NCBI RefSeq assembly: GCF_024700885.2
Contig: NZ_CP117016.1
Strand: one strand, 5' to 3'
Origin: Escherichia coli
Lineage (GTDB): Bacteria; Pseudomonadota; Gammaproteobacteria; Enterobacterales; Enterobacteriaceae
Length of the DNA stretch: 64,000 bases
Positions 9,592 to 12,500 of this stretch are shown piece after piece. Each line of letters begins with the position of its first letter. The stretch's first letter is position 1. The position numbers were made by a program.

Positions 9592-12500
9592 TTAAACAAA
9601 AAAACGAAGCAAGCATACGCCTGATGGCGGTCCAAAAAAAAGAGTCATCTTGCCTAAGAGTATTGGCAGGATGGTGAGATTGAGCGACAATCGAGTTACA
9701 CCGTCGCTTAAAGTGACGGCATAATAATAAAAATATGAAATTCCTCTTTGACGGGCCAATAGCGATATTGGCCATTTTTTTAACGCAACATCTGCGGCAA
9801 ATTCCCTTCTCCATACAGGTGTAGTGCACCGACTGCGACCACATAGCGCCCCGGCGGCATGGCGCATAATTTGTCCCGCCAGGCGAGATTTCGCTGATGC
9901 ATCAGCACATCGTACAGCGACTGACTGAACGTATTAGGCAGCGTTATTTCATTATTTTGCGGCGGCGCATTCAGCCACCAGCTCATCATTTGTTGCAGCA
10001 ACCGTGCATTGGTGTGCCAGTGGGTCAGCGTATCGTCCAGCAGCGCCAGTCCGTTGTCAGGGAGCTGGAGCAACATGGCAATCTGGTTTTCTGCCCCTTC
10101 CAGTTCAATCACGGGTTTATGTTGTTGCTTCGCCGCCTGCAATAGCTGGTAATCGATACCGTATTCTGCCCGCAGCCCCAGTTTTTGTGCCTGCGTCGCC
10201 TGAAGAACCATCGCGATTTGCCACAGCGGTTGGGTAGAAAAGAGCGACGGAGAAATGCCCATCTCCTGGCTAATGTGCTGCAGATTTTGGAGTTGCTCCT
10301 CGCTAATGCGCTCTTCCAGCGCCTCGCAGGCAGGCAAATTAGCAAAAGGCGTATCGCTGGTGGAAACATCCGCCTCGACGATCAGCGCATCGGCGTTTTT
10401 GAGCTTTTTGAGCAAACGGGTGGGCAGGGGAGCCATATCGTGGCTGCCCATATGAATACTGCCAATCAGATGAAAATGGCGATTGCCGGGAAGAGAGATA
10501 TCGATAGCAGGCCAGGTGTAATGATTACCGCGCAGCGCGGCCCAAAGCGTTTTTACCCGGTACAACAGATCCATACGACCTCCCTTTGTGAAATATCATG
10601 CTAGCGCGCGGGGAGGGATGGCGCAAATGGAGTTATGAGGCTTGTTCAGTGGTAGCTTAAATATGATCAAAAAATTGTTTTTGCTTTGAAACGAAAGACT
10701 GCACCGGTGTTGGTGGCGTCAAAATCGCCGAGGCGTTCCCTGAAGGCCGGGGCAGCCCACATGGATGTGGGCTGAGGGCGCGTTTTACAGGGATGTTACC
10801 TCGCGCCCGACCCGGTAGCCGCAAGGGATAAGCTGAGGGTACCGCGCAGCGGCGATTTTGTTCGCCAGAGCCCGGGGGCGCAGGGGGCGGCGGCGATTGG
10901 CCGCCCCCTGCGCGCTCCCTGCGCCAGTCACTTTATATGGCATTACTCATAAAAGGAGCGCAACAAGAACTGGATCTCACAAACGCATTAAGTAAATACC
11001 AATCATTCCTTCGGTTTAAACCGCAGCAACCGGTTGGCGTTACTCACTACGGTAATCGACGAGAGCGCCATTGCCGCTCCGGCGACCACCGGGTTAAGCA
11101 GCGTACCGGTGAACGGCCACAAAATACCGGCGGCGACCGGAATACCGATACTGTTGTAGATAAACGCGCCGAGCAGGTTCTGCTTCATATTGCGCAGCGT
11201 TGCGCGGGAAATCGCGAGCGCATCCGCAACACCCATCAGGCTATGGCGCATCAGGGTAATCGCCGCGGTTTCAATGGCAACATCACTGCCGCCACCCATC
11301 GCAATACCGACATCCGCCTGAGCCAGCGCTGGCGCGTCGTTAATGCCGTCGCCCACCATTGCCACCTGACGTCCTTCACTTTGCAGACGTTTGATCGCTT
11401 CGGCTTTACCGTCCGGCAGCACCCCAGCTATCACCTCATCAATCCCTGCTTCTTTGGCGATCGCATTGGCGGTGGTTGGGTTATCCCCGGTTAGCATCAC
11501 CAGACGATATCCCGCTTTATGCAGGCGTTGCAGCGCCGCCACGCTATCACTACGCAATGGATCGCGTACAGCCAGCAGGGCTACCGCTTTCCCGTCAACC
11601 GCCAGCAGCACAGGCGTTGCCCCTTGCGATGCCTGAGCTGAAATATCTGCCTCAATCGCTTTAGTATCAACTTGCTGGTCATTTAACAGCGCCTGATTGC
11701 CCAGCAATACCGCATGACCTTCAGCTTCACCGCTCACACCCAGCCCGCGCAATGTGCGGAAACCGTTGACCTGCGGTAGCTGCATATCACCTGCTTTATC
11801 GAGGATCGCCCGTGCCAGCGGGTGGCTGGAACCTTGCTCCAGCGCCGCCGCCAGACGCAATGCTTGCGCTTCATCAACATCAGCAAATGTTTTTACTGCG
11901 ACAACCTGCGGCTTCCCTTCGGTCAGCGTCCCGGTTTTATCGAACACCACGGTGTCGAGCGTACTGGCGCGTTGCAGCGCGTCGGCGTCCCGCACCAGCA
12001 CACCAAACTCAGCCGCCCGCCCGACGCCCGAAATAATCGACATCGGCGTCGCCAGTCCCAGCGCACACGGACAGGCGATAATCAGCACCGTGGTGGCAAT
12101 CACCAGGGTATAGACAATCTGCGGTGCCGGACCAAAGAAATACCAGATTGCCGCACTGATCAGCGCAATGACTACCACTACCGGCACAAACACGGCGGAG
12201 ATTTTATCCGCCAGTTGACCGATTTCTGGCTTGCTGCTCTGGGCCTGTCGCACCATGCGAATGATCCGTGACAGCGTAGTATGGCTGCCGACCGCACTGG
12301 CACGAAACAGCACACTGCCGTCCTGTACCACTGTCCCGGCATGGACGCTATCGCCTTCGCCTTTTTGCTGCGGGATAGGTTCGCCCGTCAGCATCGCTTC
12401 ATCCAGCCACGCTTCGCCTTGAGTAATCTCACCATCTACCGGCACACGGTCGCCGGTCGTCAGGCGCAGTAACATACCTGGCTGAACATCTGCCAGCGGC

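Follow-up and report, generated by a model that had tools for sequence, protein, structure and literature searches.

What occupies the spacer between ybaP and copA in an Escherichia coli chromosome that has no ybaQ there? The question is raised by a 64,000-nucleotide stretch of contig NZ_CP117016.1 (assembly GCF_024700885.2), which we call the window. An earlier note on this DNA had described a ybaP-copA interval lacking ybaQ and carrying GC-rich palindromes, but had not recognized in it the published element TRIP1e, one of the TRIP1 repeats that are also known as replication risk sequences (RRS). We found that the missing ybaQ and the palindromes are one published strain polymorphism, TRIP1e, and are in that sense already known, and that the two palindromes are helices of the conserved multi-helix fold of this element. 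We consider it likely that the window carries a 266-bp TRIP1 copy (about 300 bp with its degenerate ends) that has taken the place of a ybaQ cassette, a REP array and the hairpin found after copA in other alleles, and that this copy is a probable extra site for the triggering of gaps during replication.

The spacer between ybaP and copA contains TRIP1e

The gap between the two genes spans 428 bp (10575-11002), not the 430 bp first given. The K-12 gene order given in the earlier note, ybaP-ybaQ-copA, is correct: in MG1655 the genes have the same order and strands as in the window, and ybaQ lies at 508218-508559 (+) between ybaP and copA. Neither ybaQ nor a higB-like sequence was found in the gap or elsewhere in the window, where tblastn gave chance matches only (E of at least 0.77). 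When the higBA locus was compared with the window by blastn, the sole match was a common stretch of 35 nt at 10600-10634, with 100% identity. As had been claimed, no open reading frame (ORF) of 60 aa or more is present on 10575-11002, the largest that touch the gap being 55, 52 and 45 aa. E. coli strain 1190 is 100% identical to the window over 10400-11200.

The assignment of the gap sequence to TRIP1e rests on position, length, G+C content and identity to TRIP1a. The 266-bp core (10699-10964) lies 124 bp from the ybaP start (10574) and 38 bp from the copA stop (11003), and is 93.6% identical to K-12 TRIP1a over its whole length. The report that describes TRIP1a to TRIP1e and cites Rudd 1999 for the family (Li et al. 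2024, Genes 15:236; PMC10888264) puts TRIP1e at 124 bp upstream of ybaP and 38 bp downstream of copA, gives it a length of about 265 bp, about 94% identity to TRIP1a and 62-65% G+C, and describes its fold as a "double-Y"; the reference copy is CP057178.1 1232542-1232806. It was found there in 232 of 6725 genomes, and is a minority allele in that report as in our census below. The replacement of ybaQ/higBA, a link to the TwoAYGGAY RNA motif and occurrence outside E. coli do not appear in the parts of that report that we consulted. TRIP1 has been equated with RRS, TRIP1a being RRS-lysO and TRIP1c being RRS-dusC (Pham et al. 2023 and 2024, NAR; Kusi-Appauh et al. 2026, preprint; PMC10287960, PMC11194060, PMC13308219). 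Over the 222-bp RRS core (10703-10924) the window copy is 96.8% identical to RRS-lysO and 96.0% identical to RRS-dusC.

A repeat element had been one of the options offered for the gap, and the DNA that replaces ybaQ is indeed one copy of a dispersed repeat. Among 5426 complete E. coli genomes, 5425 have matches to the segment 10698-10968 at 90-95% identity, with a median of 3 places and a range of 1 to 10. The best copy usually sits between lysO and aqpZ, and a shortened copy sits between efeU and putP. The proposed check against the REP, RIP and BIME families gave a negative answer, in that none of four REP words (of the GCCGGATG...CATCCGGC type) occurs in 10575-11002; the REP array is a property of the K-12-type allele. 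TRIP1e resembles REP/BIME sequences in being GC-rich, palindromic and extragenic, and a REP array fills the same spacer in K-12-type alleles, but TRIP1 is one long multi-helix unit of low copy number, whereas REP/BIME sequences are arrays of units of about 35 bp.

Other origins were considered and rejected. Small ORFs are not kept among the copies, and the short peptides that follow AAGGAG vary, which argues against a hidden small gene. For a phage origin there was no match among 50,697 phage records. A plasmid collection contained 34 records with a match, all typed as non-mobilizable; the matched records that were opened carried ordinary chromosomal genes and several measured 4.8-5.4 Mb, so that these "plasmid" records are chromosomes or fragments of chromosomes.

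TRIP1e replaces the ybaQ cassette in a minority of genomes

Alignment to K-12 and other E. coli showed that the interval departs from them at about 10636 and stays non-co-linear through the copA stop codon. Four forms of the spacer were distinguished in an alignment that included loci L002, L003, L004 and the window. Form (a), at L003, has a gene for a higB-like RelE/ParE toxin and ybaQ (higA), followed by a hairpin beside copA. Form (b), the K-12 type (L002), has ybaQ alone and a REP array of varying length. Form (c), at L004, is a gap of 171 bp in which only the final 25 nt or so of ybaQ are left. Form (d), that of the window, is unrelated to the other three over this whole stretch, and about 370 bp (approximately 10636-11005) stand in for the cassette of higB-like toxin gene and ybaQ, the REP array and the post-copA hairpin. 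In the K-12-type ybaQ-copA spacers the matched spans were 965, 1066, 1167 and 1268 bp, a series with steps of about 101 bp that arises because the number of REP pairs in the BIME array varies.

The earlier note had left a choice between a deletion scar and a replacement scar. Replacement, with about 370 bp exchanged, describes the window allele. A deletion scar was rejected, because a real ybaQ deletion allele, the 171-bp gap of L004, looks quite different; the gap of the window is without ybaQ because the lineage carries a TRIP1e copy there. Among the 5426 genomes of the census, the window's allele was found in 346 (6.4%), ybaQ in 4834 and the toxin gene in 1267. Identity of the flanks to the window is 99.8% for form (c) and about 96% for the K-12 type. 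The copA stop codon (11003-11005) is TGA in the window allele and TAA in the ybaQ-carrying and other alleles, which places the boundary of the replaced segment at the extreme end of copA. At the other end, the allele-specific left flank (10636-10698) is weakly homologous to the left flanks of TRIP1a copies, and a BLAST match to the inverted TRIP1a of strain N4220121 starts at 10675 (query 44). A degenerate terminal inverted repeat is formed by TTGTTTTTGCT at about 10673-10686 and the reverse complement of the 3'-end sequence AGCGCAACAAG.

The palindromes are helices of a conserved fold

The first of the two palindromes had been described as a perfect palindrome of 18 nt at 10755-10772 (GCCCACATGGATGTGGGC). 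It is not perfect, and consists of 10-nt arms at 10753-10762 and 10765-10774 around a centre of 2 nt; it is non-random, with 0 expected in shuffles. The second, described as a hairpin with a 13-bp stem at 10879-10912, is real, with a stem that is actually 14 bp long (10878-10913); its arms, 10878-10891 and 10900-10913, are 100% complementary, with 0 such cases expected by chance. The repeated GGCGATT of the earlier note was also found twice (10851 and 10892), with the complementary AATCGCC at 10723. The + strand of the region folds with -145.9 kcal/mol (z = -5.3 against shuffled sequence), and the - strand has z = -4.7.

Copies of the element were gathered from Klebsiella, Citrobacter, Enterobacter, Leclercia, Raoultella, Kluyvera, Pseudescherichia, Pseudocitrobacter, Silvania, Salinicola and Halotalea. 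Covariation was tested on a plain MAFFT alignment of 27 copies with a hand-built structure of 69 pairs, comprising an outer stem, a stem with tandem G-A, a CGGG/CCCG junction helix, two loop-bearing hairpins, a small hairpin, the 14-bp hairpin and a terminal stem; the RNAalifold consensus misdrew hairpin 2 and P1, and the hand-built structure was used instead. Cells that should be paired were paired in 87.3% of cases, as against 38-44% when the partners were slid by 1-3 columns, and 47 of the 69 pairs showed changes on both sides. The covariation score was 0.352, as against 0.07-0.09, and was reached by none of 500 shuffles. The fold therefore covaries strongly across Enterobacteriaceae and Halomonadaceae.

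The changes can be followed helix by helix. In the outer helix P1, AAAA/TTTT is replaced by the compensatory AACA/TGTT in Klebsiella copies, and in P2 the pair 32-138, taken as an example, is GC in 12 copies, AU in 9 and CG in 3. Hairpin 1, which contains the first palindrome, has both-sided changes across genera in 7 of its 9 pairs. Hairpin 2 contains the direct repeat ACATGGATGT/ACAGGGATGT. In the 14-bp hairpin 7 pairs have changed on both sides, for example to TGTAAAGGGCG/CGCCCTTTACA in Citrobacter. In the 3' domain CGCTCC (10913-10918) and GGAGCG (10955-10960) form a helix that encloses a variable hairpin, and these arms become CGTTCAC/GTGAACG in Citrobacter and Leclercia; homology among the copies stops directly after GCGCAAC.

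G-U pairs exceeded A-C mismatches, by 67 to 20 overall and by 35 to 6 in the enterics, suggesting that the G-rich strand is the strand under selection to fold. Such a selected fold fits either folded single-stranded DNA or RNA. The same strand carries the G-run tract GGGGGCGCAGGGGGCGGCGG, in which all G runs are intact and which differs from the G-quadruplex-forming sequence present in RRS-lysO as well as RRS-dusC (GGGGGTGCAGGGGGCGGCGG; PMC11194060) in one loop base only, a T-to-C change at 10879.

Likeness to TwoAYGGAY RNAs

A structured RNA had been the third option of the earlier note, and the covarying fold speaks for it. A search of Rfam at the gathering threshold gave nothing in the region of the window. 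Below the threshold, the top match on the + strand was TwoAYGGAY (RF01731; Weinberg et al. 2010), at 10719-10858 with 31.5 bits and E = 0.007, whereas the gathering score is 43. For other proteobacterial copies the full model gave 29-43 bits, in each case on the G strand, and a single Pseudocitrobacter copy exceeded the gathering score with 49.2 bits. A pattern derived from TRIP1 (the two loop motifs and CCGRCCCG) found 111 loci, and true TwoAYGGAY RNAs of Lachnospiraceae, with 90.4 and 65 bits, were among its finds.

The two structures have much in common, namely a pair of neighbouring hairpins whose loops are of the CAUGGAUG and CAGGGAUG types, a CGGG/CCCG closing helix, a long outer stem with tandem G-A, and multiple copies in some genomes, the original TwoAYGGAY seed having multi-copy Psychromonas sequences. 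They differ in the second loop, since loop 1 of TRIP1e (AUGGAU) fits the motif and loop 2 (AGGGAU) has G for Y, and in an extra 3' domain of TRIP1 (G tract, 14-bp hairpin and terminal stem) that is missing from the Rfam model. Because the score stays below the threshold and the second loop departs from the motif, we treat TRIP1 as a relative of TwoAYGGAY and not as a member.

The element might then be a structured noncoding RNA gene of the TwoAYGGAY type, or part of one, whose loops ACAUGGAUGU and ACAGGGAUGU bind a dimeric protein such as CsrA, in which case TRIP1e would add a small CsrA-titrating or regulatory RNA at this locus. We take the loops to resemble the CsrA consensus RUACARGGAUGU obtained by systematic evolution of ligands by exponential enrichment. 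The strong covariation, the one-sided G-U excess and the Rfam matches would also be expected of such a gene, and TwoAYGGAY has been proposed to bind CsrA (PMC4333381). Nonetheless, we regard this explanation as unlikely. No sigma-70-like promoter or intrinsic terminator was predicted on either strand in 10450-11100, and the strand that folds runs antisense to ybaP and copA alike, so that read-through from copA would yield the opposite strand. G-T wobbles are tolerated in folded single-stranded DNA also, and the strand bias is therefore no proof of RNA. The core has only four GGA triplets, two of them in loops, whereas CsrB has about 20 GGA motifs; with so few triplets and neither promoter nor terminator predicted, a CsrA sponge of the CsrB/CsrC type was rejected. 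The literature searched reports no transcript of TRIP1, and the repeat is not mentioned in any of the titles or abstracts listed by a literature search on CsrA cross-linking and immunoprecipitation sequencing with regard to lysO. The published function of the family is at the level of DNA.

Possible mobility of the wider family

In Halotalea alkalilenta DSM 17697 the core lies inside a 336-bp unit at no fewer than 34 loci (L086-L119). The unit has sharp ends and imperfect terminal inverted repeats (TCAGAcTgcTGACAAA... and TCAGACTGCTGACAAAG...), and the 23 copies with alignable flank are 90-99% identical. The same locus-specific, terminator-like GC hairpin stands on both sides of the unit, and in 17 of the 23 the two flanks share exact blocks of 14-36 bp. 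No autonomous partner with the same ends was found in about 300 kb of Halotalea DNA, where the repeats occur only as ends of the short unit.

TRIP1-like copies of Klebsiella (L009, L069-L072 and L046-L049) are bracketed by directly repeated REP units (GCCGGGTGGCGGCTGCGCCTTACCCGGCC), an arrangement that parallels the hairpin duplications of Halotalea; two tandem copies, 437 bp apart, are present at L009. In Enterobacter sp. ENT03 (L032-L038), and also at L011, L081 and L023, subtypes ending in ...GAGCGCAAC and ...GTGAACGGAAC are placed head-to-head, and the resulting composite of about 575-625 bp occurs 7 times in the ENT03 genome. Inverted pairs of the element were also seen in Citrobacter and Pseudocitrobacter.

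Rearrangements were observed at other loci as well. Compared with the K-12 type (L005/L126), E. coli N4220121 (L007) has TRIP1a and about 45-60 bp of flank inverted between lysO and aqpZ, and this spacer is without the aqpZ terminator hairpin of K-12. Five more records, including two O157:H7 strains, have the same extent of match (query 44-335) on the + strand, in a comparison of the matches alone. In an E. coli-like contig of a metagenome-assembled genome (JAFAEO010000008.1, L022; CopA 99.4% identical) a TRIP1 copy is joined to copA; on its other side the adjacent flank resembles, by eye, the left flank of K-12 TRIP1c, and the first 324 nt match DNA annotated as yegH elsewhere. Rearrangement mediated by the repeat, a chimera of assembly, or a sixth TRIP1 locus could each account for this contig.

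Might TRIP1e itself be a neutral relic of a mobile element resembling a miniature inverted-repeat transposable element (MITE), which landed in or recombined into the spacer and has been kept by drift, its effects being limited to loss of the ybaQ cassette and to homology for rearrangement? The Halotalea units, the Klebsiella copies between repeated REPs and the 7 composites of ENT03 would fit, as would the copy number that differs among E. coli from 1 to 10 places and the rarity of the allele, and PMC10888264 describes TRIP1-mediated inversions that include 1a/1e and 1e/1c hybrids. We nevertheless think a neutral relic very improbable. No target duplication was detected around TRIP1e, and its terminal repeats are degenerate, whereas both features are clear in the Halotalea relatives. 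The replaced segment runs exactly to the copA stop codon, as expected of an allelic replacement rather than of a simple insertion. The core shares 96.8% identity with the K-12 RRS and has kept every helix, and since RRS works at whatever ectopic position it is given (PMC11194060), an intact copy would hardly be expected to be inert. With degenerate terminal repeats and no duplication, the E. coli copies look old and fixed.

Proposed role in replication

The reading that we prefer is that of an intact RRS. The G strand of RRS blocks Pol I, II, III and IV, and when it is the lagging-strand template, gaps of up to 2 kb arise and are loaded with RecA and SSB; at least one RRS is required unless a compensating amplification arises (PMC10287960, PMC11194060, PMC13308219). 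The canonical pair described in these papers is inverted and symmetric, about 650 kb on either side of dif, and a category of "additional RRS" is mentioned. RRS was active at three ectopic sites besides the native ones (PMC11194060). By analogy, TRIP1e probably acts as an extra gap-triggering site. When a fork unwinds TRIP1e, the G-rich strand (+ in the window) would fold through its hairpins, the G tract at 10874-10893, or both. With the + strand as the lagging-strand template, synthesis of an Okazaki fragment would halt at this structure, and the halt would leave a post-replication gap, about 2 kb long at most, onto which SSB and RecA would be loaded. The polymerase would approach by way of copA, leaving a gap that would stretch toward ybaP, ybaK and the 3' end of ushA.

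Synteny and a weakly positive GC skew of the window suggest that lagging-strand synthesis in this strain probably has the + strand as its template. The G strand of the K-12 copies is the top strand at RRS-lysO and the bottom strand at RRS-dusC, and at TRIP1e it is the + strand of the window. Gene order and strands of the window are those of K-12 at about 508 kb, in the right replichore. By gene order, the G strand of TRIP1e therefore corresponds to the K-12 top strand, and TRIP1e shares replichore and polarity with RRS-lysO. In the record of strain 1190 the locus is at 3.57 of 4.90 Mb and reversed, which fits the usual layout.

Several points weigh against this role. The GC skew of the window is only weakly positive, and the triggering of gaps at TRIP1e would be carried over from experiments with the K-12 copies. 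On the K-12 map, where we take dif to be at about 1.59 Mb, about 1.08 Mb separate TRIP1e from dif; this departs from the symmetric placement at about 650 kb, and TRIP1e would be a third, strain-specific site outside the pair. The orientation of copies relative to the GC skew of their flanks, which is a crude proxy, is unbiased (11 vs 10 in Halotalea and 19 vs 23 elsewhere), and some E. coli carry TRIP1a flipped with respect to its flanks, so that a replication-polar function is not obviously what shapes the family. Moreover, the feature that covaries is the set of hairpins, and Halomonadaceae copies keep two G runs only, suggesting that a G-quadruplex may not be the conserved feature.

The allele would also have side effects at its own locus. 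YbaQ would be lost, and the sequence upstream of ybaP would be changed beyond -60. A search on the - strand for an intrinsic terminator of copA (a GC hairpin followed by a U tract) gave 0 terminator-like sites; what follows the hairpin on that strand is CCCCGGGC. With the post-copA hairpin lost and no intrinsic terminator predicted in its place, read-through is probable, and copA transcripts probably run into the antisense strand of the repeat.

Coordinates and neighbouring features

The features of the spacer are collected in Table 1. The order of genes in the window is ushA (7408-9060, +), ybaK (9097-9576, -), ybaP, the gap, copA and then glsA. The chiX small RNA gene, identified by the presence of ACACCGTCGCTTAAAGTGACGG...GGCCATTTTTTT, is in the ybaK-ybaP interval at 9698-9781 (+) and ends approximately at the ybaP stop; its K-12 equivalent is 507204-507287. 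Farther along, positions 16001-32000 have a G+C of 0.57-0.62, high for E. coli, compared with 0.50-0.55 in the remaining window. From the K-12 map, rhsD is presumably located in this stretch.

Table 1. Features of the ybaP-copA spacer and its flanks (window positions).
Feature	Position	Strand	Basis or remark
TRIP1e repeat core (RRS-like), 266 bp, 65% G+C	10699..10964	+	Published distances; identity to TRIP1a
Allele-specific left flank of TRIP1e unit	10636..10698	+	Homology to ybaQ alleles stops at about 10635
P1 outer helix, 5' arm GGCGTCAAAATCG	10715..10727	+	Pairs with 10853-10866; helices 1-2 of tested structure
P2 helix, 5' arm CCGAGGCGTTCCCT	10728..10741	+	Internal tandem G-A; pairs with 10824-10838; helices 3-4
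Hairpin 1, CAGCCCACA-UGGA-UGUGGGCUG	10753..10774	+	Loop motif CAUGGAUG; helix 6
Hairpin 2, GGGCGCG...ACAGGGAUGU...CGCGCCC	10776..10808	+	Loop motif CAGGGAUG; helix 7
P2 helix, 3' arm AGGGATAAGCTGAGG	10824..10838	+
Small hairpin CCGC-GCA-GCGG	10842..10852	+	Helix 8; both-sided changes in 3/4 pairs
P1 outer helix, 3' arm CGATTTTGTTCGCC	10853..10866	+	Holds most of GGCGATT 10851-10857
G-run tract GGGGGCGCAGGGGGCGGCGG	10874..10893	+	19/20 match to RRS G-quadruplex sequence GGGGGTGCAGGGGGCGGCGG
14-bp G+C hairpin, 8-nt loop	10878..10913	+	Overlaps G tract; helix 9
3' domain, 3' end of repeat, terminal CAAC	10913..10964	+	Helix 10
Allele-specific right flank, incl. copA stop codon	10965..11005	.	Alignment
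Spacer part next to ybaP, common to all alleles	10575..10635		Alignment with K-12-type, higB-ybaQ-type and short alleles
ybaP (TraB/GumN family), left flank	9780..10574	-	ORF; 100% identical to annotated ybaP of strain 1190
copA (Cu+ P-type ATPase), right flank	11003..13507	-	ORF

Discussion

For this locus alone the significance is small, in that a published strain polymorphism explains it. Compared with K-12, carriers of the allele are without the YbaQ/HigA-type regulator, would by analogy with the K-12 RRS probably have a third programmed site of post-replication gaps, and probably have an extra block of homology for large inversions.

The observations outside E. coli allow a wider reading, on which we are evenly divided. 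TRIP1/RRS may be the enterobacterial branch of a widespread family of structured elements that includes TwoAYGGAY of Lachnospiraceae and Psychromonas and that is mobile now or was once. The MITE-like unit of Halotalea would insert at terminator hairpins and duplicate each of them in its entirety (14-36 bp), and the Klebsiella copies between duplicated REPs would be a counterpart. Selection would keep the multi-helix fold of one strand, and not specifically a G-quadruplex. The RRS of E. coli would be fixed and possibly domesticated, with TRIP1e as a recent extra copy. These links of TRIP1/RRS to TwoAYGGAY, to mobility and to a fold are not made in the literature searched.

Taken together, the covariation of the fold, the likeness to TwoAYGGAY and the MITE-like behaviour suggest where RRS may have come from and to which class an orphan RNA motif may belong. 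They also pose the question whether it is the hairpins or the G-quadruplex that causes the block to replication.

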